Part shown: positions 1 through 10,619 of the stretch, piece after piece
Position numbering within the stretch: the stretch's first letter is position 1
Layout of the letters: each line of letters opens with the position of its first letter
Virus record (IMG/VR): IMGVR_UViG_2778261593_000002
Coordinates: 1 to 10,619 of that record
Source: a virus
Lineage: Duplodnaviria > Heunggongvirae > Uroviricota > Caudoviricetes
DNA length: 10,619 nt
Reading direction: 5' to 3' (one strand)
The notes under the pieces: generated by a model
Told to the model about the DNA's origin: nothing
Seen by the model: the letters and a program-made list of their open reading frames with translations, nothing else
Databases searched by the model: none
Made by a program: the position numbers and the translations under genes

Positions 1-101
1 TAAGTATTCTGCGCAATTTCCCCGACGGTCGCCGGTTCGGTGACGCTTAATTCATTAAACACCACTCTGGCGGTTTCGGTCATATCCTGCTGTTTTAGCA
101 T
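1..101 (-). CDS. Window-truncated CDS (first 33 codons only), unknown product; first gene downstream of the Q-dependent late promoter/terminator
   Basis: ATG at 101..99 preceded by AAGGGA Shine-Dalgarno-like motif about 7 nt upstream; frame stays open to the window edge; translation MLKQQDMTETARVVFNELSVTEPATVGEIAQNT. No family recognised. Confidence 0.3.
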   Translation of the reverse strand, partial: MLKQQDMTETARVVFNELSVTEPATVGEIAQNT

Positions 102-224
102 GTCTTTTTCCCTTTTAAGGTTAACGTGACATACCAATAACTCTTGTCGAAAAAGCCAGCAAGCTGAAAGACCGGTATCCGCAACCACCAGCTCGTTTAA
201 CGTCCTGTACCGCTTTTCGGGCAC

Positions 225-251
225 AAAAAAACCCGCTTGGCGGCGGGTTTT
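225..251 (-). terminator. Intrinsic terminator (tR'-like) downstream of Q and the late promoter; bidirectional architecture
   Basis: Plus strand reads AAAAAAA-CCCGC-TTGGCG-GCGGG-TTTT: 5-bp GC stem (232-236 / 243-247), 6-nt loop, flanked by A-run and T-run. On the minus strand the hairpin is followed by 7 U residues. Confidence 0.6.
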
Positions 252-301
252 GCTTACTTTGCCATCGCGTACAAAATCGGCAAAATATCAGATTTGCATG
301 A

Positions 302-330
302 AATATATGCTTTTCAATCTACTTTTGCAA
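302..330 (-). promoter_or_regulatory. Sigma70 promoter directly after the Q stop codon (PR'-like late promoter, candidate qut region)
   Basis: Minus strand reads TTGCAA (coords 330..325) - 17 nt - TATATT (307..302). The -35 overlaps the last Q codons; predicted start near 295, about 50-70 nt upstream of the terminator at 225-251. A -10-like TATTTT lies in the early transcribed region. Confidence 0.5.
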
Positions 331-1003
331 TACTTTGCTTTGAAAATGCCGCCTTTTGTTCCGAACGCGTCCTCATTACCAACAATAAAGCCTCACTATC
401 CAGCTGGTGGAAAATGTGTTTCATTGCAACCCAGTGACCAGTAAATGTTTTGGACCAGTTTTTAGTTGTCACTCCCGCCAGTAATGCCAGATCCTGGTAT
501 TCATAACCTTCCCCGCCAAAAAGTTCTGCTTTTACTGCCTGCGCCGCCAGCCAGATTAATTTTTTCAGGCGTTCCCGTGTTTTCTCTGCAATTTTCCTGT
601 TGCCAGAATGAGCCTTAAACTCTTCCCATGCCCAGCGGGTTATGGTGACCTGATACTCCCAGCAAATATTTCCGCTGTAACACCACAACAACCAGGTTTT
701 ATGAGGTTCTTCAAGAGACAGAACAGCCCGTCGCCATGAGGATGTCGAAAACTCAACCTGACTTACCAGAGGAATTGACGTCCCCTTCGCCAGCGATTGT
801 TTCCCCGGGATTGGTGGATTATCCCGCGTGATCATTTTTCCAGTCACTTCATCGCAGTACCGGATTTTTTTACGCCTGTAACGCCCTGTATCGAACATGG
901 CATTCTCCTGCCAGGCTTCAAGCTGACCTTTTGTTGCCCCACTCAAATCGGCGGTGGCGATAATGAGCTGCTCACGAACAAACTGTAAATACTGGTTATT
1001 CAT
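314..1003 (-). CDS. Phage antitermination protein Q (non-lambda, phage 82/21-type Q family), 229 aa
   Basis: ORF 314..1039 trimmed to ATG at 1003..1001, which overlaps the rusA stop (ATGA coupling). It sits directly downstream of rusA and upstream of a strong promoter plus terminator, the canonical Q position. Family assignment is from memory of Q-like proteins. Confidence 0.65.
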   Translation of the reverse strand: MNNQYLQFVREQLIIATADLSGATKGQLEAWQENAMFDTGRYRRKKIRYCDEVTGKMITRDNPPIPGKQSLAKGTSIPLVSQVEFSTSSWRRAVLSLEEPHKTWLLWCYSGNICWEYQVTITRWAWEEFKAHSGNRKIAEKTRERLKKLIWLAAQAVKAELFGGEGYEYQDLALLAGVTTKNWSKTFTGHWVAMKHIFHQLDSEALLLVMRTRSEQKAAFSKQSIAKVD

Positions 1004-1365
1004 GCGCACTCCAGTTCTGTGATTTTTATCCCCAACCAACCACCAGGAACAGGCAGTCCGCGCACAATATTTATTTCATCAAACTGCTCGTCGTCTATGA
1101 GAAGTCCGGCATGCGTCAGCGCATCCAGTGGTGCTTTCAGAATATTGTCCAGGTCACGACGGCGCTTATCCGGTGGCTCCGCAGTAATTTTTATTGCCAG
1201 CCTTCCGGACAGGTTTAATTTCAGTCGCTGCTGGCGAACAATAAGCGCCACATCCCGGCGATAACGCTCACCGGCTTTTGATACAAAATATGTGCTGCCA
1301 CGACGTCGCCAGTAGGTGTTTACCGTCGGCGGGTAAGGCAAAACAAATTCTATGCGTTCAGTCAT
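1000..1365 (-). CDS. rusA: Crossover junction endodeoxyribonuclease RusA (Holliday junction resolvase), 121 aa
   Basis: Translation contains LPYPPTVNTYW, PDKRRRDLDN and DALTHAGLLIDDEQ blocks matching motifs I recall from E. coli RusA (LPWPPS, PDRRRRDLDN, DALTKAG..DD). Size and position before Q match lambdoid nin-region rusA. Confidence 0.88.
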   Translation of the reverse strand: MTERIEFVLPYPPTVNTYWRRRGSTYFVSKAGERYRRDVALIVRQQRLKLNLSGRLAIKITAEPPDKRRRDLDNILKAPLDALTHAGLLIDDEQFDEINIVRGLPVPGGWLGIKITELECA

Positions 1366-1366
1366 T

Positions 1367-2699
1367 TCATGCTTTCCACTTCAGAACACCCGAATTTTTC
1401 GCGTGCATTAAAAAACGAATCAGCAACAACAGCTGGCTGCCGTGTTTTTCTTCAAAATCTTTTACCCCAGCATGCAGTTCGTTATGGCATTTGCGGCACA
1501 GCGGAATAACAAACAAATCGTCAGCCTTTGTTCCCATCCCTCCCAGCCCATGACCAATGATGTGGTGCGGATCATCTGCCTGATTGCCACACGTCACGCA
1601 TTTCTGCGTTTTTACCCAGCGCGTGTATACGGGCATCTCTTCCCGTTGTGGTTTCTGGCGCTGGAGATACTGAGCCGGAGACTCCGGATCAACGGCAATG
1701 CTGACCACCGTCTTTTCCTGTGGCAGGCTCTGTTGCTGGTGGACGTGAGGCGGTAGCACAATATTTTTTGTGCGCTGCTTCAGTATGCTGGTGGCTGTCT
1801 GCTCTCCAGGTACGATGTCGCTGTCGCGGTACACTGAGAGGATTTTATCCGCACGCAATCCCAGCGAACGACGTAATACTGCCTCCGGTAATGCGTCCGC
1901 TACCTGATTGCAGACCGCCCACCAGGATAATTCAGCCAGCGATAATTCCCGCTCCTGTGTGCCATTCATTGCGTGACGGATGACGTCAGTCATCCATGCT
2001 GACAGGTTTTGATGAGCAAGTTGCCCGAGTGATTCGGAAGTCTGGTCACGCAGCTGGTTGTCGCAGTGCCAGCACAACACCATCGCGCCGGTACCGTAAC
2101 GATGTATGACGGTTTCGCTGTGGTGATAGTCGCCATGAGGCCACTGGCAGGATTTGACATGACGCAACAGCCAGTCAGAAAGTGCACCAGCGCCGCCAGC
2201 AGCACGAATCACCCGTTCGTTACTGAAAAACGGCAGCAATGTTTTGTCTTCCGCCAGCGGCTGGCGAATGGCAGGAACGACTCCGGACGGCAGACCGCGC
2301 ATGCTTTTCGGTTCCGGCTCCACCAGCACTCGAGGGTTATGAAATACCTGCATGGATTCACGACCAGGCTTAAGGACCACCAGCCCGAGTTCCGGTACCG
2401 GAACAGGTCGAAGCAATACCCGCACGTTACCTCCAGATCCGTTGCTGGAATGTGCGGGACGGACGCGGTGGGCGTTCAGAGTAAGGCAGTCTGACTGAGA
2501 TGATCCAGTGTCGGAAGTCGAGGCTGAGGTCTTTCTGAAACTCGTAACCACGTCTGCGGTAGTTCTGAATCAGCCATTCGGCCTGTTCTTCAGTGCATGG
2601 ATCATGCTGGAACCAGTCAGATTTGAATGCATGAGAACGCCGCCCGTGCCTGCTGGCAAGGTCGGTATCAGAATTGTGATGTTTGGTATTGTGCGCCAT
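1367..2699 (-). pseudogene. DUF968-family (YdfU-like) protein with HNH-like Cys/His zinc motif, split across two reading frames (frameshift or sequencing error)
   Basis: C-terminal part in ORF 1367..2551 contains CVTCGN..HHIIGHGLGG..CRKCHNELH. N-terminal part is in a different frame (ORF 2427..2825, probable ATG at 2699..2697). The two frames overlap over 2427..2569 and both look coding-like. Same position as ydfU between hok and Q in Qin-type prophages. Confidence 0.5.
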
Positions 2700-2760
2700 C
2701 GGTTTTCTCTGCTGGCGCAGCAGGTGCCAGTTGTTCAGGCTGGCCTGTGGATTGTAAACC

Positions 2761-2786
2761 AGAATACGTAAAACAAAAAACCCGCC
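2761..2786 (-). terminator. Intrinsic terminator of the hok/mok mRNA
   Basis: Minus strand reads AACCCGC-UUCG-GCGGGUU followed by UUUUUGUUUU: 6-bp GC stem, UUCG tetraloop, U-run (plus-strand A-run 2761-2770). Confidence 0.6.
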
Positions 2787-2791
2787 GAAGC

Positions 2792-2806
2792 GGGTTAAGC
2801 GCGGGT
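2792..2806 (-). promoter_or_regulatory. 3' fold-back element of the hok mRNA (fbi-like), complementary to the predicted mRNA 5' end
   Basis: Plus 2792-2806 GCGGGTGCGTTGAGG is the reverse complement of plus 3180-3193 CCTCAAGCACCCGC with a single 1-nt bulge, so the 5' and 3' ends of the minus-strand transcript can form a 14-bp duplex, as in hok-family mRNAs. Confidence 0.5.
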
Positions 2807-2865
2807 GCGTTGAGGATGCCGACACATCAGAGGTGGCGGGAGATTACTCTCCCGCCTGGTCACTC

Positions 2866-3021
2866 TTACTTCTCAGATTCGTAGTCTACGAAGACAGCAA
2901 CCTCCGTCTGGCCGGTTCGGATTCGTACCTCGCAGAGGTCTTTCCTCGTTACCAGTGCCGTCACTATGACGGTTAAACAGATGACGATCAGGGCGATTAA
3001 CATCGCCTTTTGCTGCTTCAT
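2866..3021 (-). CDS. hok: Hok/Gef-family type I toxin (small membrane peptide), 51 aa
   Basis: MKQQKAMLIALIVICLTVIVTALVTRKDLCEVRIRTGQTEVAVFVDYESEK is near-identical to Hok/Gef/RelF family sequences recalled from memory. ATG at 3021..3019 with AAGGAG Shine-Dalgarno 9 nt upstream. Confidence 0.9.
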   Translation of the reverse strand: MKQQKAMLIALIVICLTVIVTALVTRKDLCEVRIRTGQTEVAVFVDYESEK

Positions 3022-3078
3022 AGCCTGCTTCTCCTTGCCTTTCGGCACGTAAGAGGCTAACCTACATTTGTGAGACAT
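2866..3078 (-). CDS. mok: Mok-like in-frame N-terminally extended reading frame sharing the hok stop codon (70 aa)
   Basis: ATG at 3078..3076 with GAGG about 9 nt upstream; in frame with hok and adds 19 residues (MSHKCRLASYVPKGKEKQA). This mirrors the mokC/hokC arrangement (longer frame sharing the 3' end). Confidence 0.55.
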   Translation of the reverse strand: MSHKCRLASYVPKGKEKQAMKQQKAMLIALIVICLTVIVTALVTRKDLCEVRIRTGQTEVAVFVDYESEK

Positions 3079-3120
3079 AGATTGGGCCTCAGATTAATGT
3101 TAAGCGTCTTGCAGGACGCG
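3035..3120 (+). ncRNA. Candidate Sok-like antisense RNA region (promoter plus RNA) opposite the mok translation initiation region
   Basis: Plus strand TTGCCT (3035-3040) - 17 nt - TAACCT (3058-3063) would start transcription near 3070, antisense to the mok Shine-Dalgarno/ATG (3076-3095). A hairpin GCGTC-TTGCAG-GACGC lies at 3104-3119 but no clean U-run follows. Weak evidence. Confidence 0.25.
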
Positions 3121-3179
3121 TAATGTTAACTGGGGCTTTTCTCTATCTGCCTTTTGGTGTTCATGCCTGAGGCAGATAG

Positions 3180-3225
3180 CCTCAAGCACCCGCAGCAATT
3201 CTACTTAACTCTCCTTTTCCCGCAA
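3180..3225 (-). promoter_or_regulatory. Putative hok/mok promoter and mRNA 5' end
   Basis: Minus strand TTGCGG (3225..3220) - 16 nt - TAGAAT (3203..3198); predicted start near 3191, which coincides with the 5' partner (3193..3180) of the fold-back pairing. A 9-bp hairpin CTATCTGCC / GGCAGATAG (3144-3179) lies in the leader. Confidence 0.4.
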
Positions 3226-3232
3226 ACCGTTT

Positions 3233-3316
3233 TTATCCCCATCGGCAAATCGAATACACCACCAGCGCCACCGCCATCGCAATTCCTACTGTAGTGAATG
3301 CCTCAGGCCAGGTCAT
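3233..3316 (-). CDS. Possible 27-aa hydrophobic small protein (below the ORF-track cutoff)
   Basis: ATG at 3316..3314 overlaps the stop of the upstream gene (ATGA); translation MTWPEAFTTVGIAMAVALVVYSICRWG ends at TAA 3235..3233. One predicted transmembrane-like segment. It overlaps the predicted hok promoter. Confidence 0.3.
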   Translation of the reverse strand: MTWPEAFTTVGIAMAVALVVYSICRWG

Positions 3317-3708
3317 CGATTCACCTCCTGCTCAATATTTTTAAGGTCATTTTCCGCATACAGTATTGCTGTCCTGGCTGCTCGTAACCGGGCTTTGGCG
3401 TTTTTCTCTTCACGTTCAAGTTTTGCCACAGCTTCACGAAGAGCATCCCGCTTTGCATAGAGTGATTTTATCTCAGACACTATGTTTTCACCGTTTCTCG
3501 CACGCTCGAGAACAAGCTCGAACGGATCTAAAGCCAATCCGCATCGGTTACAGGTAATCGTACGATTCACTTCTGAAATTGTTGTACGGATATGCTGACA
3601 GCATTTTTGCTCGCCGCTTTTTCTGTCGGTTATCACAACGTTGAGGAGTCCTTCCTCCTCTGATTTTGGCTGTACCAGGGTGATAACATTGTCGACTTCA
3701 TTTTTCAT
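3313..3708 (-). CDS. Hypothetical phage protein, 131 aa, N-terminal Cys cluster (CC..C..C) and C-terminal coiled-coil-like region
   Basis: ATG at 3708..3706 overlaps the upstream stop (ATGA) with AGGAGG 7 nt upstream; C-terminus is Lys/Glu/Arg/Ala-rich (AKLEREEKNAKARLRAARTAILYAENDLKNIEQEV). Confidence 0.6.
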   Translation of the reverse strand: MKNEVDNVITLVQPKSEEEGLLNVVITDRKSGEQKCCQHIRTTISEVNRTITCNRCGLALDPFELVLERARNGENIVSEIKSLYAKRDALREAVAKLEREEKNAKARLRAARTAILYAENDLKNIEQEVNR

Positions 3709-4241
3709 CAGTTCACCTCCTGCGGTGGTTCTGGTAGCGGCATCCAGTGAGTTGCCTGCTCAATATCATTACCCGGCTTAATCGTTGCATCCCCTCTCCG
3801 GAATGTACTTCCGGTATAGCGTGCGGAGCATATTAGCGGTTCAACCAGAGAGCTATCGAAATTCACCGAAATGAGCACGTTCTGATTCTTCTCAGGCATT
3901 CGCTCACTACAGCTTATCCAGTCATTTTTAATGCCACTATCCTGACTCTGAAGCATAGTGGCGCGGTGACACCAGATAATCCAGCCAAGCGCCATATCCC
4001 ATGCCATGTATTCGCTATCGCCATTTTTTGCCCTGCGACGATCTACAGATTCCCCGAAACGCTTCTCCATAAATAATTCATAGGCTGCCCGTTCATCCGA
4101 TACTGCTTCCAGCGATGCCAGTGCGATACGAAACACATCAGCAAGTAGGCTGTTTGAAGATTGGTTATCGTGCGCCGGATCGCTCAGGAAACCAGTGATG
4201 AATGATTTAATCTCCGCGTTTTCTCTGGTAATAGTGGTCAT
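3708..4241 (-). CDS. DUF551-like phage protein, 177 aa
   Basis: ORF 3708..4331 trimmed to ATG at 4241..4239 with AAGGAG 7 nt upstream; C-terminal THWMPLPEPP motif is what I recall as typical of DUF551 proteins. Start lies 2 nt after the upstream gene stop. Confidence 0.6.
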   Translation of the reverse strand: MTTITRENAEIKSFITGFLSDPAHDNQSSNSLLADVFRIALASLEAVSDERAAYELFMEKRFGESVDRRRAKNGDSEYMAWDMALGWIIWCHRATMLQSQDSGIKNDWISCSERMPEKNQNVLISVNFDSSLVEPLICSARYTGSTFRRGDATIKPGNDIEQATHWMPLPEPPQEVN

Positions 4242-4242
4242 A

Positions 4243-4461
4243 TCAGTTCTCCTTATACGGATTAATTTTATTGTGCAGTGTGTTGAACGACGCCCATACC
4301 ACGTCGTTATACAATTCAATAACGGGCTCAATTACTTTTCCGATTATCCAGGCCAGTAATAGCGGGAATATCGGTATCATCAATACGATAAACAGAATGA
4401 GAAACAGAAATTCTGTCGCTCTACTTTTTCGCGGATATTCTTTTCTGAATAATGTAGTCAT
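4243..4461 (-). CDS. Small predicted membrane protein, 72 aa
   Basis: ATG at 4461..4459; hydrophobic stretch FLFLILFIVLMIPIFPLLLAWIIG; tightly coupled to the downstream DUF551 gene. Confidence 0.5.
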   Translation of the reverse strand: MTTLFRKEYPRKSRATEFLFLILFIVLMIPIFPLLLAWIIGKVIEPVIELYNDVVWASFNTLHNKINPYKEN

Positions 4462-4588
4462 TTCTTACCGCCCTTTCGGGCGGCCTCCGGATGATTTGAG
4501 GGTGCAGGAATCCCTCCGGTTAAGGATTTAATAAAAACCACTTCTGATTTAAATTTTCAGTGTTTTGTTGTCAGGTGGTTTATCGCCT

Positions 4589-5194
4589 TTATGCTTCAGC
4601 CTTATTTCTCAGCCATACACAAACAGGGCCGTCTTCGGTGTCATGTATTGAACCAATAAACCAACCATCGCCCTCTGGTCGTTCCGGTTCCCATGCAGAA
4701 ATATCAGCATCACACGCATCAAGGTCAGCACATCCTTCGTCTCTGAAGCAGAGGACGTATTGAAGATTATTTTCCTCCATCCAGGCGTTAAACTCTTCCG
4801 TTGAAATATACTCCCGACCACCACAGAATTTTTCATATTCAGGATGCGTCCAGTAGCCATATTCATCACGCATTACTGGTATTTCTTTAATTACGTTCAT
4901 CAGTATCACTCCTAATGCTTTGTTAATTGCAGAATGGGCCATTTCGAATTCATCAGTTTTTCTGTCAGCAACACGAACCACCGCTTGCAGGGCTTCAAGT
5001 AATTCTGGTGCTGCCGCTAAAAGCTGAAAATTAGCTTTCTGCATCTGCCAGTCATTGTTGTATTTTGTCACCTTAGCAATTGCCTTATCGCGTTCACTAT
5101 CCACTACCCAGCAATTAGCTGAACCGTGGAAACTTACATGCCATGGACCTGGTGTTCCTTTAAATTTCATGCCATGATTTTTTGTATTGCTCAC
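4589..5194 (-). CDS. Hypothetical phage protein, about 201 aa, acidic Cys-containing C-terminal region
   Basis: ORF 4589..5272; preferred start is GTG at 5194..5192 because GGGAGGA lies 7 nt upstream, whereas the 5272 start and the ATG at 5170 lack a Shine-Dalgarno motif. Contains GTPGPWHV and LLAAAPELLEAL segments. Start choice is uncertain. Confidence 0.5.
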   Translation of the reverse strand: MSNTKNHGMKFKGTPGPWHVSFHGSANCWVVDSERDKAIAKVTKYNNDWQMQKANFQLLAAAPELLEALQAVVRVADRKTDEFEMAHSAINKALGVILMNVIKEIPVMRDEYGYWTHPEYEKFCGGREYISTEEFNAWMEENNLQYVLCFRDEGCADLDACDADISAWEPERPEGDGWFIGSIHDTEDGPVCVWLRNKAEA

Positions 5195-5441
5195 TCGCTT
5201 CCTCCCACGTTTTAATGCTTTCACCACAGAACGGGCAAAATGAAACCCGAACTGGTAATTTAGAAAATTCACCGGATCGCAACATCACCAAATCAGGGCC
5301 GCGAGTTAAACTCTCATTCCAGATTTTGTATATCAGCAGGCCTTTTCGCGTCGTGTATTCAGCATCATGCTCAAGGGATTTTGTCAGTGCCGTACACGGT
5401 TCTATCTGATTGCCCTTAACCTGGCATTTTGATTCACTCAC
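5160..5441 (-). CDS. Hypothetical protein, 93 aa, with a C-terminal CPFC zinc-ribbon-like motif
   Basis: GTG start at 5441..5439 with AGGAG about 11 nt upstream; overlaps the upstream gene by 8 nt; Cys at positions 6 and 16 plus CPFC near the C-terminus. Confidence 0.45.
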   Translation of the reverse strand: MSESKCQVKGNQIEPCTALTKSLEHDAEYTTRKGLLIYKIWNESLTRGPDLVMLRSGEFSKLPVRVSFCPFCGESIKTWEEASEQYKKSWHEI

Positions 5442-5715
5442 TGGTTGCTGTCTCCTGTCGGAACATCACGATCATCAGGCCATCTTTTGTTGCTACCCTG
5501 GCTGTTGTACCAGGCTCTATGCTGCTAAGGTCAAATGCATCACAGAACTCCTCTAACACTTTCTGGCGTCTCTCCTGTTTGCGGCGCTTTTCCCACTGCT
5601 TCAGAAAAACAGAGGTCACCCACTTCCCCGCGCTGAACATGATGTAAAACCAACCAAGCAGAGCCAACCCCGTGTTGAGGGCTGTATCAATCGTTATTGT
5701 TGTGTCGATATTCAC
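5434..5715 (-). CDS. Hypothetical membrane-anchored protein, 93 aa
   Basis: GTG start at 5715..5713 overlapping the upstream stop, AGGAG 10 nt upstream; N-terminal hydrophobic segment LALLGWFYIMFSAG followed by a charged KRRKQERRQK stretch. Confidence 0.45.
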   Translation of the reverse strand: MNIDTTITIDTALNTGLALLGWFYIMFSAGKWVTSVFLKQWEKRRKQERRQKVLEEFCDAFDLSSIEPGTTARVATKDGLMIVMFRQETATSE

Positions 5716-6008
5716 TGTGTCTTCTCCTGGAAAATAACCGCATGCCCCAGTTTCTCCGCCAGTGCCAATTCTGCCTTAGCACCTGCTGACCGCTGCCAGC
5801 CTTTCAGCATGTAAATCGCATCCACACAACGAATCATTGCCATGCAAATATCCATGTAGTGTGGCTGTGTCAGCCCGTCCGGAAGTACTGCCGGGTTTAA
5901 GACTGTATGCCCTTCCCGTTTCAGTTCCTCTTCCGCCTTGTGGAACGCCTCACGGTTGAAATTTTTATACCCGGTCATTGGACCGGCGATATAAACCCTT
6001 ACCCTCAC
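5712..6008 (-). CDS. DUF4406 / nucleoside 2-deoxyribosyltransferase-like protein, 98 aa
   Basis: N-terminal VYIAGPMTG motif is characteristic of that superfamily as I recall it; GTG start at 6008..6006 overlapping the upstream stop (GTGA) with AGGAGG 8 nt upstream. Confidence 0.55.
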   Translation of the reverse strand: MRVRVYIAGPMTGYKNFNREAFHKAEEELKREGHTVLNPAVLPDGLTQPHYMDICMAMIRCVDAIYMLKGWQRSAGAKAELALAEKLGHAVIFQEKTQ

Positions 6009-6406
6009 TCCATCACCTCCTGAAAATCTCCCTGATAGAACGCCAGTACACGCTGCATAACCTCACTCTGACGGCACTCACGGCAAATTATGTTCTGGTG
6101 CCGGTCGTAGGGTTGTGCTCCGGCTTTACCCTGTTTTTGTGCTGGTTTGCGGATAACCCTTGCTTTTCTTGCCGAACTTGCCAGCCATTCACGGTAAACT
6201 CCCTCTGAAAGGAATACCCCTTTTCCGCTGACAACATACACTTCGCCCTGGCTCACCAGCATCTTCAGGTACCGGCGAATGGAATCATGTGAAGCATATG
6301 TTGTCGATGCCAGTTGTGGCATTGTCATACGCCCGTTTTTACGTACAAGGTCAACGATGTGACGCTGTAATCTTTCCCGCTGTTCTTCGGTATAAATAGC
6401 CCCCAT
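6005..6406 (-). CDS. Hypothetical winged-helix-like DNA-binding protein, 133 aa (sits where a helicase loader would be expected)
   Basis: ATG at 6406..6404 with AGGAGA 5 nt upstream; segment MTMPQLASTTYASHDSIRRYLKMLVSQGEVYVV resembles a winged HTH. No AAA+ or DnaC-like motifs seen. Confidence 0.5.
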   Translation of the reverse strand: MGAIYTEEQRERLQRHIVDLVRKNGRMTMPQLASTTYASHDSIRRYLKMLVSQGEVYVVSGKGVFLSEGVYREWLASSARKARVIRKPAQKQGKAGAQPYDRHQNIICRECRQSEVMQRVLAFYQGDFQEVME

Positions 6407-6448
6407 AAACTCTCCTGAGAAAATAACTTCATAACCTCAAATCAACAC

Positions 6449-7381
6449 TTACCCCCTGAACCCCGGCGGAATTTCGGTGTCCGGTTCAGAAATGTGATTC
6501 ACGCAACGCTGTACAGGCGAACGCCCCAGACGAATAACCAGCTCATCCCATTTTTCGCGAAGCTTTGACGGGCTCATGACGTTTTTTACCCAGAATGGAT
6601 CCCGCTGTACCCGACCAAACATTTCGCAAATTTGTCTGTGAGTTCTGCCATCCAACATCCGCATTGTGCGCACATCATTGGCCCATGCAGTCCAGTTGGG
6701 TTCTTTCGGTCGCATGATTTCGCCATCATCGCTGGCAGCCTGCTCGTAAAGACTCACGATTCGTCCCCAGATCCACTGCGCACACGCTAAATCTTCCTGG
6801 CTGCCCCACTGGCGTTTTTTCGCACTGAACACAACCGCGTCAGGGTGTCGGGTTAAAAAATCCTGTTCAGCCGTCTGCGAGTCCGGTTGCGAAGCTTCCG
6901 GACGAAAAGATCTTTTATCTGACGGATCAGGTTTTAATACTGACGGATCGGGGCCAACCATCGCCCCCCTAACCGGATGTTTTTTATCAACGGTTGATCC
7001 ATCAAAATTTGAGGGGTCAATATTTGACGGGTCATTTTTTACCGGGTTAATTTTTCTTTTCGGTTTATATGCCTCACGCGCCGCCGCTGCTGCTGCTTCG
7101 AGTTTTTCCACATTAAGACGGTAGATATTGCTTTCATTACGCCCACCGACCTTACGTTCTTCCTTCGTCAGCCAGCCGTTCTTTTCCAGTTCTGCTATCG
7201 CAGCTTTAACCGTTGATTCACTCTTTGCCCCAATCTGACGACGAATGGTCTCCACTGCAGGCCATGACACACCTTCGTCATTGCTGTAATCTGCAAGGCG
7301 AGCCATTACTGCCACCCTGGATAAGATCATGCCGGTGAAGGCGCACCCTTCCCAGACAAGACCATGAAGCTTGCTGCTCAT
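6449..7381 (-). CDS. Replication initiation protein (lambda O-like: N-terminal HTH domain, iteron-containing linker), 310 aa
   Basis: ATG at 7381..7379 with GGAG 7 nt upstream; N-terminal HTH-like segment; central repetitive DPSNIDPSNFDGS...GPDPSVLKPDPSD region encoded by DNA iterons; position after the cro/cII-analog genes. Confidence 0.65.
   Translation of the reverse strand: MSSKLHGLVWEGCAFTGMILSRVAVMARLADYSNDEGVSWPAVETIRRQIGAKSESTVKAAIAELEKNGWLTKEERKVGGRNESNIYRLNVEKLEAAAAAAREAYKPKRKINPVKNDPSNIDPSNFDGSTVDKKHPVRGAMVGPDPSVLKPDPSDKRSFRPEASQPDSQTAEQDFLTRHPDAVVFSAKKRQWGSQEDLACAQWIWGRIVSLYEQAASDDGEIMRPKEPNWTAWANDVRTMRMLDGRTHRQICEMFGRVQRDPFWVKNVMSPSKLREKWDELVIRLGRSPVQRCVNHISEPDTEIPPGFRG
6918..7060. 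repeat. Candidate replication origin: four to five GG(A/G)TC-containing iterons followed by an AT-rich stretch, inside the O-like gene
   Basis: TCTGACGGATC (6918-6928), ACTGACGGATC (6939-6949), TTTGAGGGGTC (7008-7018), TTTGACGGGTC (7024-7034), then TTTTTTACCGGGTTAATTTTTCTTTTCGGTTTATAT (7035-7070). Confidence 0.5.
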
Positions 7382-7405
7382 AAAAAAACTCCGAACACCG
7401 TGCTT

Positions 7406-7831
7406 TTAGTGCATCACCAGGGCATTTCCCGCCGGACCACCACGATTCATCTGATTGAAACCAGCGATCGCCACTGCGACAAAATCATCAGCGTCTCTCA
7501 CCAGTCGCTCCCGCGTCTCCACCAGCTCCCGAAAATAAGCTGAACTGTGGCTGCGCATTCTGGCCACCAGCAAAGGTGGCATTGCCTTTTCGATCGCTGG
7601 TAACAACGCCTGAATTTTTTCAACTGCATCAGGGGTGTCTTTCTCTACCCAGCGGAAAATTTTCTGGGTATTGCGAGCCAGGGCTTCCGGATGGCTGTCG
7701 TCATACAGTTCCGGGAACGTCATTCCCAGCTCGAAATACGCTTTGGTAATTTTCGCAGCCGGTACTTTTTCGCCGTCCGGATGCGCCCAGGCATTCATCG
7801 CCATGCGGATGTGTTCATGCTTGATTTTCAT
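7406..7831 (-). CDS. YdaT-like protein (reported CII functional analog of Rac-type prophages), 141 aa
   Basis: N-terminus MKIKHEHI and C-terminus ending VMH match what I recall of E. coli Rac YdaT; start overlaps the cro-like stop (ATGA); GGGGG Shine-Dalgarno upstream. Confidence 0.6.
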   Translation of the reverse strand: MKIKHEHIRMAMNAWAHPDGEKVPAAKITKAYFELGMTFPELYDDSHPEALARNTQKIFRWVEKDTPDAVEKIQALLPAIEKAMPPLLVARMRSHSSAYFRELVETRERLVRDADDFVAVAIAGFNQMNRGGPAGNALVMH

Positions 7832-8058
7832 GAATCCCCCCCTTGGTTAGAAGGCGGATTATGATCAGAACCGGGAATGACAACCGTCGGTATGTGTAAC
7901 TCATATTTGAGCGCCCCGGCAGTGACTGCCTGAATTAGCAACGCCCATTTCCACGGAACCTCTTCCCCCCACATGCTGACTGTGGTTTTTGACGTTCCTA
8001 GAGCTGCGGCTGTTTTAACAACTCCGCCAAAATAGCCTAATACTTCTGATTTTTTCAT
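7828..8058 (-). CDS. Cro/YdaS/DicC-like small HTH regulator, 76 aa
   Basis: ORF 7828..8106 trimmed to ATG at 8058..8056 with GGAG 7 nt upstream; HTH-like segment VVKTAAALGTSKTTVSMW; divergent from the CI-like gene across a 91-bp operator region. Confidence 0.65.
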   Translation of the reverse strand: MKKSEVLGYFGGVVKTAAALGTSKTTVSMWGEEVPWKWALLIQAVTAGALKYELHIPTVVIPGSDHNPPSNQGGDS

Positions 8059-8151
8059 GAGTCGCTCCATAAAACTGAACGTCAAAAGTTTAATAATCAA
8101 AACCAAAAAAAGTCAAGAAACAAAACCATCTGTGTTTTAAAATCAAAACAT
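8059..8151. promoter_or_regulatory. Divergent immunity control region (OR-like): PR-like and PRM-like promoters with a palindromic operator
   Basis: Perfect inverted repeat TGTTTT-aaaatc-AAAACAT at 8133-8151, overlapping the CI start codon and a TAAAAT -10 (8138-8143). Minus strand has TTGACT at 8116..8111 followed by AT-rich -10 candidates for the cro-like gene. No Shine-Dalgarno precedes the CI ATG, suggesting a leaderless transcript. Confidence 0.55.
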
Positions 8152-8788
8152 GAGCAAGCAAACTATATCTGAACGCATAACCCAACGTATGCATGCGCTA
8201 AACCTGAAAGGCAAAGACCTTGTCAATGGCACTGGCGCATCAAAAGGCTCCGTAAGTCAATGGATGAACGGTGGAGGAGCGCCGTCCTCGCGTTACATAA
8301 GTTCACTGGCAAAAATATTGAAAGTAAACGAAAATTGGCTTCTTAATGGAGGAGAGTTAAATACAGGTGATTCGCTTGATCTATCTTTACCGCCGATAAA
8401 AACGGTTCCGCTACTATCACTTCAGCAGGCAGCAAGCTGGAGTGATTATATGAAAAATTCCTCAATAACCTCTTGTGTGCAGCTTGTCGGAGAAATCCCG
8501 GTCAATACCTTTGCAGTTGTTCTAGAGAGTGACAGTATGTCAACATCTGGTGGGGGAGTTTCCATCCCAAATGGTTCAACAGTTTTTGTTGATCCCGATC
8601 GAACCGTACAACCAGGAAATATTGTCCTTGCCTTACCCAAAGGGACCACAACACCTGTCATTCGTAAACTGGAGATAGAAGGGCCGGATATTCTTTTAGT
8701 CCCCACGAATCCTCGCTACCCTTCAATTATGCTGGATGATCTATCTTGCATATTGGGCGTATGCTTTAAAATTCAACAAGATATTTAA
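8150..8788 (+). CDS. CI-type prophage repressor with N-terminal HTH and C-terminal S24 (LexA-like) autopeptidase domain, 212 aa
   Basis: N-terminal HTH (ISERITQRMHALNLKGKDLVNGTGASKGSVSQW); C-terminal ESDSM...VFVDPDR...VIRKL...LVPTNPRYPSI parallels lambda CI motifs GDSM / VDPE / KKL / LNPQYPMI. Confidence 0.85.
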   Translation: MSKQTISERITQRMHALNLKGKDLVNGTGASKGSVSQWMNGGGAPSSRYISSLAKILKVNENWLLNGGELNTGDSLDLSLPPIKTVPLLSLQQAASWSDYMKNSSITSCVQLVGEIPVNTFAVVLESDSMSTSGGGVSIPNGSTVFVDPDRTVQPGNIVLALPKGTTTPVIRKLEIEGPDILLVPTNPRYPSIMLDDLSCILGVCFKIQQDI

Positions 8789-8854
8789 CCAACCTCATCT
8801 ATTTGATTAACTGTATGCCATCGTGGTGATGGCTTAACAGCTGCCTGCTTAAAA

Positions 8855-8901
8855 TGTTTTGATAAAAAAACATTGACCTGAAAAGTTCGTTTTTCTAAAC
8901 T
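8855..8901 (+). promoter_or_regulatory. Promoter of the ydfABC-dicF-dicB-like operon with a second copy of the operator palindrome
   Basis: TTGACC (8873-8878) - 17 nt - TAAACT (8896-8901), preceded by an A-tract. Operator-like TGTTTT-gataaa-AAAACAT at 8855-8873 overlaps the -35 and has the same half-sites and spacing as the site at 8133-8151. Confidence 0.5.
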
Positions 8902-9080
8902 TCATTCATTCCCTCACCCCATCCTACAGAATGCAGGGCAATACTTCGAGTTACCAGGCAGTGGTCAGGGGTTAAGTAGCCAGCCCGAGGCGTAAGAACA
9001 TGACGGCAGGGTTCAACTTTAATAACTATGCAGCAGGTTTTTGTTCCGCTACCCCGGCGTTAAGGGGAAATGAGGTCAGC

Positions 9081-9236
9081 ATGGATACTATCGATCTTGG
9101 CAACAACGAATCTCTGGTGTGCGGCGTGTTTCCCAACCAGGACGGCACATTCACCGCGATGACGTATACCAAAAGCAAAACGTTTAAAACCGAAAATGGT
9201 GCCCGTCGCTGGCTGGAAAGAAACTCAGGTGAGTGA
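9081..9236 (+). CDS. YdfA/YdaF-like small protein, 51 aa
   Basis: ORF 9000..9236 trimmed to ATG 9081 with GAGG 7 nt upstream; size and position as first gene after the repressor match ydfA of the Qin dicB operon. Identity is inferred from position and size, not sequence recall. Confidence 0.55.
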   Translation: MDTIDLGNNESLVCGVFPNQDGTFTAMTYTKSKTFKTENGARRWLERNSGE

Positions 9237-9237
9237 T

Positions 9238-9366
9238 ATGGATTTCGACACAATCATGGAAAAGGCTTACGAAGAATACTTCGAAGGCCTTGCCGAAGGC
9301 GAAGAAGCTCTCAGCTTCAGTGAGTTTAAACAGGCGCTTTCCAGTTCGGCAAAATCTAACGGCTGA
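9238..9366 (+). CDS. YdfB-like small acidic protein, 42 aa (below the ORF-track cutoff)
   Basis: ATG at 9238, 1 nt after the upstream stop, with AGGTGAG upstream; translation MDFDTIMEKAYEEYFEGLAEGEEALSFSEFKQALSSSAKSNG; TGA at 9364-9366. Confidence 0.5.
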   Translation: MDFDTIMEKAYEEYFEGLAEGEEALSFSEFKQALSSSAKSNG

Positions 9367-9396
9367 TAAGCGAAATAGCACCGCGAGGAATTCAGT

Positions 9397-9612
9397 ATGA
9401 AGAAACAAGAACCCGTCATCATCGCGCCAGACTATACCGATGATGAAATTTACGAATGGATGTGCGGGAAGATACGCGCCATTAATGACCTGAAGCAGGC
9501 TGCTGACTACAAAGAGCGCCTCTCTAAAGAGCTGGCGTCAGCGGAGCAGGATATTACCTCTCTGGCAAAAAACGCGGCATTAAACGTTTCGCGAGTGATT
9601 GCAAACTACTGA
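9397..9612 (+). CDS. YdfC-like small protein, 71 aa
   Basis: ATG 9397 with GAGGAA 9 nt upstream; third small gene of the operon, matching ydfC in position and size. Confidence 0.55.
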   Translation: MKKQEPVIIAPDYTDDEIYEWMCGKIRAINDLKQAADYKERLSKELASAEQDITSLAKNAALNVSRVIANY

Positions 9613-9627
9613 CCGATGAGGTTGACG

Positions 9628-9807
9628 ATGAATGAGACAGAACTTAAACACGTTATTGCCTTGCTTCTGGAAGATGCAAAACGCTTACATGAACTGGAAC
9701 CCAATGCAGGCACAGAGGCCCGCATTTGGTTAGCAAAAAAATGCCTGGATAGTAAAAGTTTTCAGAAAGAAATAACAATCAGTTTTGAGAATTCGCCTCA
9801 TCTATGA
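9628..9807 (+). CDS. Hypothetical small protein, 59 aa
   Basis: ORF 9616..9807; second ATG at 9628 has GAGG 8 nt upstream; its 3' end overlaps a convergent minus-strand ORF by 29 nt. Confidence 0.35.
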   Translation: MNETELKHVIALLLEDAKRLHELEPNAGTEARIWLAKKCLDSKSFQKEITISFENSPHL

Positions 9808-10009
9808 ATTGTTGAATCAGGTTTGCTAATTCAGTGGCATGTTTATCACCTGTGCTTTTTAAAGCATCTGTTACACAATCTGAGCGAAGTTCTGGCGGAA
9901 GTCTTGTTGCCATCAAAGCTATCGCGAGCTTAATGGCTCTTAACTCAGCATTTATTCCATCATGGGATAAATCATTATTAATAGTGGTTTTTATTGTGTT
10001 CAAAATCAC
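9779..10009 (-). CDS. Hypothetical small helical protein, about 74-76 aa, antisense to the surrounding operon
   Basis: AGGAGG at 10015..10010 sits right at the GTG (10009..10007); a TTG at 10003..10001 gives 6-nt spacing. Composition looks protein-like (LRAIKLAIALMATRLPPELRSDCVTDALK). Confidence 0.4.
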   Translation of the reverse strand: MILNTIKTTINNDLSHDGINAELRAIKLAIALMATRLPPELRSDCVTDALKSTGDKHATELANLIQQFIDEANSQN

Positions 10010-10337
10010 CCTCCTGAGGGTTGTTAATTAAGGAGTTCTCCACGGGTCAGGTGGAGTGCGTGCGCCGGACACGGGTGAGCATCCGGCACTGACAGTTTAC
10101 TGAAAGGATATATCCCTGAAAAGTCAGGGCATAACGCGAAAGCGCACGGCGAAGTTATTTCTCCCTCTGTTGCGTGCCACCGGCATCTTCGACCGTGCGC
10201 TTCCGGTTGTGGCAATCCGCGAAATGGCGCGGCGGTAAGTATGGCGGGGTTATTCTTTCCCCGTTGAGGACACCGGGTTGTCAGGTTGACCATACGCTTA
10301 AGTGACAACCCCGCTGCAACGCCCTCTGTTATCAATA

Positions 10338-10394
10338 TTCTGGTGACATTTGGCGGTATCAGTTTTACTCCGTGACTGCTCTGCCGCCCTTTTT
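10338..10394 (+). ncRNA. dicF: DicF small regulatory RNA with its Rho-independent terminator
   Basis: TTCTGGTGACATTTGGCGGTATCAGTTTTACTCCGTGACTGCTCTGCCGCCCTTTTTT matches the E. coli DicF sequence as I recall it with one or two substitutions; GGCGG...CCGCC stem followed by a T-run; position between ydfC-like and dicB-like genes. Confidence 0.8.
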
Positions 10395-10574
10395 TAAAAG
10401 TGAATTTTGTGATGCGGTGAATGCGGCTCAGCGCACGCGGAACAGTTAAATCGGTAAAGCGGTCATTTGCTGAGTAACGGGAATGCTCTGTATCCGGCGT
10501 TAATTGTTAACTGGTTAACGTCACCTGGAGGCACCAGGCACTGCATCACAAAATTCATTGTTGAGGACGCGATA

Positions 10575-10619
10575 ATGGAAAAGTTATCATACAATGCCAG
10601 TACGTCTGAACTTCGTTTC
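10575..10619 (+). CDS. Window-truncated start of a DicB-like cell-division inhibitor gene
   Basis: ATG 10575 with GAGGA 7 nt upstream; MEKLSYNASTSELRF shares about 7 of 15 residues with the N-terminus of E. coli DicB as I recall it (MKTLLPNVNTSEGCF), and sits downstream of DicF as dicB does. Confidence 0.4.
   Translation, partial: MEKLSYNASTSELRF

Follow-up and report, generated by a model that had tools for sequence, protein, structure and literature searches.

Can a run of 27 codons, lying between a gene labelled only as hypothetical and a hok/sok locus, be a gene in its own right, and if so, what would its product do? The question is raised by a sequence of 10,619 nucleotides (nt), positions 1 to 10,619 of the IMG/VR record IMGVR_UViG_2778261593_000002 (Caudoviricetes), to which we refer in full as the window. 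A sequence-only reading of the window had described an open reading frame (ORF) for a hydrophobic peptide of 27 amino acids (aa) at positions 3233-3316. The ORF is present there, lies on the minus strand and encodes MTWPEAFTTVGIAMAVALVVYSICRWG. A bare 27-codon ORF is uninformative, since 37 ORFs of at least 20 aa are listed within 1.7 kb of the window. This one stands above chance because more than 100 loci keep its frame, length and residues and substitutions among them follow a coding-type pattern, and we regard it as very probably a real protein-coding gene. The explanation that we favor, with a probability of roughly 0.6, is that it encodes a single-pass inner-membrane micropeptide that would be made by coupled translation and act as a packing-type modulator during early lytic growth.

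The ORF is common among prophages of E. coli. By blastn, the 84-nt sequence occurs in 1468 of 5426 complete E. coli genomes (~27%), at 2384 places and up to 6 times per genome, and tblastn recovered it from 94 phage records. We gathered the family by exact-sequence look-ups, tblastn and degenerate DNA patterns. The degenerate-pattern scan of viral contigs returned 126 matches, among them 114 intact 27-codon copies (55 unique DNA sequences). Four further matches are defective (one in-frame deletion, one frameshift and two stop losses), one is truncated at the end of a contig, one has 27 codons with a divergent C-terminus (IFCWG), and the remaining six are MTWPEAF ORFs of unrelated phage contigs or chance matches. 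Members at 59-67% identity still keep 27 codons, as in VT1-Sakai and BP-4795 (MNWPEAFTAVGVAIAVAFILYSLFRWG) and in PhiR12_4 (MSWPDAIVTLGMVFAAAFVVYSICRWG); the form carried by 933W and Min27 (MTWPEAFANVGTVMAVVLVVYSICRWR) has 27 codons as well. The conserved positions are W3, P4, E/D5, A6, G11, A15, A17, S22, R25, W26 and G27. Two exact copies stand under non-enterobacterial hosts: that of the window peptide in phage record PP818812.1 (Actinobacillus phage vB_Apl-pPE4) and that of the 933W-type peptide on a 431-bp Xanthomonas pisi contig (L179). These probably reflect contamination or mis-assignment, not the true host range.

The substitutions carry the signature of a translated frame. Deviations from the consensus number 47, 43 and 122 at codon positions 1, 2 and 3, respectively, and the stop alternates between TAA and TGA while its position is fixed in intact copies. 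Across 73 unique sequences, divergent members included, the ratio of nonsynonymous to synonymous polymorphism (pN/pS) is 0.25 in the frame of the ORF, against values of 1.3-1.7 in four of the other five. The fifth, an antisense frame whose wobble positions coincide with those of the ORF, has a pN/pS of 0.28. We rejected it as a gene: this plus-strand frame is open over 3180-3344, yet its only start is a GTG at 3294 that leaves 16 codons. Another plus-strand ORF (3154-3294) was rejected as a gene because its second codon positions fall on variable sites. Taken together, the frame-specific pN/pS and the 114 intact copies out of 126 identify the 27 codons as a protein-coding gene under purifying selection. 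Conservation of the frame in related prophages had been named as a check by the sequence-only reading, and the ORF passed it strongly, both in the retention of the 27 codons and in the coding pattern of substitution; the proposed gene for a small hydrophobic protein, coupled to the upstream cistron, is supported by this conservation.

The signals for translation are conserved alongside the frame. As had been seen from the letters, the ATG of the ORF shares an ATGA with the TGA of the upstream gene, which encodes 131 aa. A perfect Shine-Dalgarno sequence, AGGAGGT, lies 6 nt before the ATG and had gone unmentioned. A Shine-Dalgarno of the GGAGG type is retained in the common upstream junction classes, with a few weaker versions such as AAGGTG in the 933W type, and in all annotated family loci inspected the upstream coding sequence ends within the start of the ORF. 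The usual overlap is the 4-nt ATGA; VT1-Sakai and BP-4795 have a 1-nt overlap instead, TGATG, where an ATG upstream in the same frame re-creates ATGA. The only second codons seen are ACN, AGC and AAT, all of which leave the overlapping TGA intact. The overlap and the Shine-Dalgarno inside the upstream gene, both kept in homologs, are those of a translationally coupled downstream cistron, as which the ORF would be read. A programmed frameshift fusing the upstream protein to the peptide was considered and rejected: the peptide lies in the -1 frame, and GTGAATCGATGA offers no slippery heptamer. A prfB-like +1 shift at the junction would lead into the wrong frame.

What surrounds the ORF varies, and what stays constant is the ORF. 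Clustering of the flanks separated 17 upstream and 13 downstream types, which occur in many combinations. The upstream classes are unrelated to one another and comprise DUF551 proteins ending in PEPPQEVNQ, a family of 131/156-aa coiled-coil proteins, a 114-aa protein ending in ISVEDVLR, EaA, a MazG-like-DUF551 fusion and a protein labelled as a methyltransferase; every one of them retains the Shine-Dalgarno and the start/stop overlap. Homology between upstream classes stops within the last codons of the upstream gene, downstream sequences part exactly after the stop codon of the ORF, and the only recombinants seen have the ORF whole. By its flanks, the ORF is an autonomous mosaic module. Its followers other than hok are convergent toxin-antitoxin genes, ea22, DUF4222-xis-int, host DNA or a terminator-like hairpin, and the ORF tends to be the last cistron before what appears as an insertion site of extra cassettes (morons). 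At six loci that lack hok (L003, L009, L022, L030, L034 and L037), a GC-rich hairpin with a T-run stands right after the stop codon, followed by a convergent or unrelated cassette. A candidate K-12 homolog was rejected: the DUF551 gene yfdS of CPS-53 is followed by yfdT and not by the ORF.

This modularity bears on the relation of the ORF to hok. A hok gene lies within 600 nt downstream in 65 of 118 loci, with a commonest spacing of 211-212 nt, which is also that of the window. The functional tie to hok implied by the sequence-only reading is not borne out, since the ORF occurs without hok in ~40-45% of loci; hok is a frequent neighbor (~55-60% of loci), and by this distribution the ORF is a unit separate from hok/sok and not part of the same device. 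The overlap with the hok promoter that had been described also needs correction. The stop codon of the ORF falls 6-7 nt upstream of the -35 box, so that the ORF abuts the core promoter without overlapping it and covers only the upstream (UP-element) zone, from about -42 to -125 relative to the hok start. We read this promoter from the sequence, anchored on the start of the Rfam model; a consensus promoter scan made no call there because the -35 box is weak. Read-through of the operon into the hok promoter region, a further suggestion of that reading, is plausible. A terminator scan of the region found no terminator-like site on the minus strand between 3313 and 3191, so operon transcription should continue into hok, in antisense orientation to the plus-strand Sok homolog. 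The terminator of the hok transcript is the sole terminator-like site on the minus strand of the scanned region.

The gene order and work on a related prophage both point to expression during early lytic growth. On the minus strand, Pfam assignments read cro, YdaT, an HTH_36 initiator, DUF977 and, after intervening genes, DUF4014, DUF551, the 131-aa gene, the 27-codon ORF, hok/sok, DUF968, RusA and Q, an order that reads as a rightward early operon and places the ORF within it, in a lambdoid prophage of Qin/Rac-like type. Accessory early operons of lambdoid phages and prophages are where the ORF belongs in general. In Sp5/933W, the C-terminal part of a 131-aa-like gene is followed by an unannotated small ORF and then by hokW/sokW. 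Takada et al. found that HokW production requires RecA-mediated induction of the prophage and that the level of sokW RNA drops (PMC8621323); the same hokW-sokW paper on Sp5 makes no mention of the ORF upstream. The timing that we propose for the peptide follows from this arrangement, because hokW, whose production needs induction (PMC8621323), comes immediately after the homologous ORF in Sp5/933W. RecA-dependent HokW production and the fall in sokW RNA would both fit read-through from the early operon.

The peptide itself has the features of a minimal membrane protein. Residues 6-24 are hydrophobic (mean Kyte-Doolittle value of 1.72 for residues 8-25), and Trp3 and Trp26 flank the predicted helix. 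With a length of no more than 50 aa and one hydrophobic helix able to span the bilayer, the product has the size and helix of small single-pass membrane proteins. Glu5 is the sole N-terminal charge and Arg25 follows the helix, a charge pattern that is kept across relatives and that, under the positive-inside rule, predicts an N-out, C-in topology in the inner membrane. Small conserved residues stand on alternate positions, G11-x-A13-x-A15-x-A17, and make up the interleaved small-xxx-small motifs G11xxxA15 and A13xxxA17, while variation is seen at residues 8, 10, 12, 14 and 16. These motifs, together with the interfacial residues, lean toward specific helix packing over generic membrane damage.

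We propose the following mechanism. Ribosomes that end the preceding cistron would restart at the overlapping ATGA, aided by the strong Shine-Dalgarno, so that the peptide would be made once the early operon of the prophage switches on. The conserved WPEAF, xxVG and G-x-A-x-A-x-A elements could then pack on another transmembrane helix, whether that of a host or phage membrane protein or of further copies of the peptide, and the peptide would serve as a small membrane modulator in early lytic growth. The modulator mechanism is the tentative part of this proposal, and we place it somewhat below even odds; a role as toxin or lysis helper is its main rival.

Several observations weigh against the proposal as a whole. 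The constraint is moderate (pN/pS 0.25-0.34), and much of the identity that was sampled may come from recent exchange among E. coli prophages and not from long-term selection. Defective copies exist: phage POCJ13 has TAG as codon 3, and a few other copies are frameshifted or have lost the stop. Residues 8-10, 12, 14 and 16 vary freely. The family-library searches described below returned no homology to any characterised small protein. The strings MTWPEAFTTVGIAMAVALVVYSICRWG and MTWPEAF were both absent from the literature searched in full text and from the supplements of the Sakai small-gene paper and of the Enterobacteriaceae microproteome preprint. The inactivated POCJ13 copy is that of locus L254 (1201-1281).

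How do other explanations account for the same data? The strongest competitor, which we nonetheless consider unlikely, is that the peptide is a small membrane toxin that depolarises or permeabilises the inner membrane after induction in the manner of kil or type I toxins, perhaps speeding lysis together with Hok. Its size and hydrophobicity lie within the range of TisB, DinQ, ShoB and ZorO, going by general knowledge, and early operons are silent in lysogens, where kil-type functions are tolerated. The company that the ORF keeps is also suggestive, with hok so often downstream, toxin-antitoxin cassettes adjoining elsewhere, and MTWPEAF ORFs of other phages adjoining other small membrane proteins; HokW, moreover, aids Sp5 lysis after induction (PMC8621323). 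Other features speak against a toxin. No antisense RNA or structured leader was found (no Rfam match over the ORF; fold z-score of -1.05), and a strong Shine-Dalgarno and direct coupling are found instead. The helix has no amphipathic or charged face and no polar tail, its conserved interfacial Trp, Pro and Glu and its small residues suggest specific packing, and neither PADLOC nor Pfam matched the peptide to a toxin family.

That the peptide itself is unimportant, its frame being kept for a cis effect of translation or as a recombination linker between phage modules, strikes us as improbable. Such a cis effect could consist in ribosomes being kept at the operon end against Rho polarity, ahead of the untranslated hok leader or a terminator. 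The position of the ORF would suit this, as the operon often ends with it, a promoter, a terminator-like hairpin or a convergent cassette coming next, and its ends coincide with the flank junctions; the duplication of the junction motif CAGGAGGTGAAnnGATGA in the window and the merely moderate selection point the same way. Against this stand constraint at the level of amino acids (pN/pS 0.25 in the ORF frame), an invariant length, specific residues that survive at 59-67% identity despite many synonymous changes, and an MTWPEAFxxVG start that recurs in phages of unrelated DNA composition, a recurrence that neither a linker nor an any-translation role would be expected to produce. Still less probable is a detached membrane anchor of the upstream protein (DUF551, Ea22-like or coiled-coil), either a remnant split off from a tail-anchored protein or a tethering partner. 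The ORF does frequently follow proteins with the DUF551 C-terminal sequence PLPEPPQEVNQ, and one 143-aa protein, P0054, joins an Ea22-like coiled-coil protein in frame with the peptide (…LESNK-MSWPDAF…RWG). Yet the upstream genes of several classes are mutually unrelated, ~95% of copies form a cistron by themselves, complete with Shine-Dalgarno and ATG, the junction offers no -1 frameshift slippery site, and most longer database entries are gene-caller extensions in an open upstream frame. A chance ORF without function, for which the abundance of short ORFs and the lack of RefSeq annotation could be cited, is effectively refuted by the conservation, the substitution pattern and the translation signals.

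The favored explanation, a membrane micropeptide of the early operon, has several known systems as points of comparison. Like KdpF (29 aa), AcrZ (49), MgrB (47), MgtS (31), PmrR (29) and CydX (37), the peptide has fewer than 50 residues and about one transmembrane helix, and it shares with such small membrane regulators of E. coli a predicted basic cytoplasmic side, putative small-residue packing motifs and the tendency to be missed in annotation. Similarities to KdpF and to a glycine-zipper model, though weak and below threshold, lead in this direction too. Unlike the class of KdpF, AcrZ and MgrB, to which it has no significant homology, the peptide is prophage-borne and not chromosomal, mosaic in its distribution and predicted to be expressed by coupling in phage early operons. 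With Hok/Gef it shares the predicted character of a small hydrophobic inner-membrane peptide of prophages and, probably, co-transcription with hok upon induction. Hok/Gef proteins, however, have ~50 aa, an N-terminal transmembrane helix and a periplasmic tail with a conserved Cys, whereas the peptide is half that size, has no tail beyond RWG and does not match Pfam Hok_Gef. The ORF also has no mok-type leader ORF, fold-back mRNA or antisense RNA; where hok-sok has tight translational repression, it has a strong Shine-Dalgarno.

Among the kil-type genes, lambda Kil, Rac KilR and Qin DicB/YdfD may be analogous in being small, non-essential early-operon genes that are silent in the lysogen and made on induction, and the window prophage, which is Qin/Rac-like and carries DicF, YdaT and DUF968, shares the setting of these genes. 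The peptide differs from Kil, KilR and DicB, which are soluble division inhibitors, and has no sequence similarity to them. The Pf3 coat and other proteins with an N-out, C-in topology resemble it in being phage-encoded and in having, in this order, a short and acidic N-terminal tail for which translocation is predicted, a single helix and basic residues. Together with the superinfection exclusion proteins T4 Imm and HK97 gp15, they are plausible functional analogues that would suggest membrane exclusion or modulation; all lack homology to the peptide and are longer, and exclusion proteins are expressed from the prophage in lysogens.

The peptide has been passed over by annotation. RefSeq/PGAP does not annotate the ORF in any of the six loci inspected, nor is it annotated in any of ten phage records inspected; NCBI has entries for the exact peptide under the label hypothetical protein (AOM45384.1 and others). 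Scans of the peptide against Pfam-A, NCBIfam, PHROGs and PADLOC gave no family above threshold. The best sub-threshold matches were DUF883_C (14 bits against 27), KdpF (14.7 against 26.85) and phrog_4612 (E = 0.019), with none from PADLOC, and a Pfam scan of three family variants at E values up to 10 gave no Hok_Gef match. A phmmer search of 1.84 billion representative proteins with a 31-residue in-frame extension returned no distant family, its 24 hits all being close variants or gene-caller extensions. The Rfam scan at gathering thresholds matched only the neighboring hok leader and nothing over 3233-3316, and the RNA fold over the ORF is unremarkable; an RNA element at this place was rejected on both counts. 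At 90% identity, the 27-aa peptide falls into a cluster whose representative, a Shigella DUF551 protein of 121 aa, lacks the peptide sequence; this looks like a clustering artefact that arose via partial gene calls crossing the gene boundary, such as P0012 (GGESMTWPEAF…).

Does the family extend beyond these prophages? Small MTWPEAF ORFs were found in unrelated phage contigs with a GC content of 40-71%. We repeated the scans with only G/C-ending or only A/T-ending codons, which largely excluded the E. coli family, and defined a provisional group by the start M-[TSN]-W-P-[ED]-A-[FIL], often with xxVG at positions 8-11, one transmembrane helix followed by basic residues, a length of 25-50 aa and a start that overlaps the upstream stop. 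The window ORF fits this description in all respects. Examples range from a 50-aa ORF at a GC content of 0.71 (L258; MTWPEAFTTVGLAFAAL...), in which 13 of the first 15 residues are identical to the window peptide, through ORFs of 29 aa at 0.65-0.66 (L260 and L043; MTWPEAFCSVGWAAALAST...), 34 aa at 0.56 on 260 contigs (L016 and L078) and 30 aa at 0.45-0.46 in phages of 110-190 kb (L261, L262 and L265; MTWPEAFALVGINF...), to one of 25 aa at 0.40 (L270; MTWPEAFTSVGLLL...). Four more (L054, L088, L120 and L264) have 27-35 aa at 0.42-0.66. A hydrophobic stretch followed by basic residues is present in all of these, and the upstream stop is overlapped in all that were inspected for it (L016, L043, L088, L258, L260 and L262).

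By manual tally, small transmembrane ORFs make up ~13 of 16 non-coli viral matches and ~2 of 72 among the bacterial and archaeal genome matches listed, a comparison in which the search motif itself imposes ascertainment bias. The bacterial and archaeal matches listed are mostly due to chance, include one conserved out-of-frame Atopobium sequence and were used as a null set only. Nine relatives from other phages had no Pfam or PHROGs match, and Pfam scans of the neighbors of distant MTWPEAF ORFs were uninformative. Outside the motif, only some of these ORFs, L258 among them, show convincing homology, and we treat the wider family as a lead. On the broadest interpretation, the peptide would be the enterobacterial branch of a wide, as yet unrecognised phage micropeptide family that tunes the membrane or lysis in phages of hosts with a GC content from 40 to 71%, united by the MTWPEAFxxVG N-terminus, one transmembrane helix, a basic C-terminus and constant coupling to the preceding gene. 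The conserved half of the helix, on the side facing the periplasm and outer leaflet, would have a universally conserved component of the envelope as its binding target, or else the peptides would assemble with neighboring small membrane proteins such as Hok; in either case, membrane integrity or the timing of lysis would be tuned after induction. Taken as a whole, this interpretation is doubtful.

Small prophage membrane peptides are an established category, and a specialist would be moderately surprised to meet the present one, which appears to be an uncharacterised and systematically unannotated member. The ORF is present in ~27% of complete E. coli genomes, and a single strain often has it in several prophages; among its carriers are the Shiga-toxin (Stx) phages 933W/Sp5 and VT1-Sakai. 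It is a concrete example of a conserved phage micro-proteome that pipelines skip. For work on Stx phages, constructs or deletions over the region upstream of the hokW promoter would carry or remove the ORF unnoticed. Should the MTWPEAF ORFs prove to be one family, they would provide a tractable model, of just 27 residues, in which to study phage use of minimal transmembrane helices.

The features of the window to which we refer are collected in the table below.

Table. Features at and around the 27-codon ORF, in window coordinates
Feature	Position	Strand	Description
27-codon ORF	3233..3316	-	MTWPEAFTTVGIAMAVALVVYSICRWG; ATG 3316-3314, TAA 3235-3233; predicted single transmembrane helix, Trp at both interfaces, acidic N-terminus, basic C-terminus
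ATGA start/stop overlap with 131-aa gene	3313..3316	-	signature of translational coupling
Shine-Dalgarno AGGAGGT	3323..3329	-	within the last codons of the upstream 131-aa gene
131-aa gene	3313..3708	-	Cys-rich N-terminal part and coiled coil; no Pfam family
DUF551 gene	4331..3708	-	
Inferred hok promoter	3198..3226	-	-35 TTGCGG/TTTGCG 3226-3220, -10 TAGAAT 3203-3198, start near 3191
hok mRNA leader	3016..3191	-	Rfam RF01794, 121.7 bits, E = 5.2e-28, full model 1-157; mok start region
mok/hok frame	2866..3078	-	hokD-type toxin coding sequence 3021..2866; in-frame extension from 3078 corresponds to mokW
Sok antisense RNA homolog	3076..3140	+	aligned to bases 7-71 of the annotated 71-nt SokW of phage 933W
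Intrinsic terminator of hok transcript	2779..2796	-	first terminator-like site downstream of the ORF on this strand
DicF antisense RNA	10338-10389	+	full length; Rfam RF00039, 77 bits

The gene upstream of the ORF may have been inserted into this operon. RefSeq labels the homologs of the 131-aa gene 'hypothetical protein'. The DUF551 gene is joined to the 131-aa gene by the same CAGGAGGTGAAnnGATGA junction that joins the latter to the ORF, and the DUF551/131-aa gene junction, CAGGAGGTGAACTGATGA, which the sequence-only reading had not noted, is near-identical to the second. The motif CAGGAGGTGAA-nn-GATGA is thus present twice on the minus strand, at 3706-3723 (DUF551/131-aa gene) and at 3311-3331 (131-aa gene/ORF). 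In many prophages, the 27-aa ORF directly follows DUF551 (…PEPPQEVNQ*). Given the duplicated motif and this arrangement elsewhere, the 131-aa gene looks as if it was inserted by recombination at the microhomology between Shine-Dalgarno/stop-start sequences.

Downstream of the ORF, the window holds a complete hok/sok-type locus, spanning 2779-3226 on the minus strand and 3076-3140 on the plus strand, with a weak promoter and a tac-like 5' end at 3191. The Rfam match to the hok leader opens with GGGUGCUUGAGG, which we take to be the 5' tac element of the R1 hok mRNA. A fbi-like sequence near 2815-2803 is complementary to this 5' end. The locus is ~96-100% identical to hokW/sokW of phage 933W, which holds its hok/sok block elsewhere on the phage map, in the leftward, ea22-side arm. 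At the far end of the window, the DicF RNA marks the prophage as Qin/dic-like.

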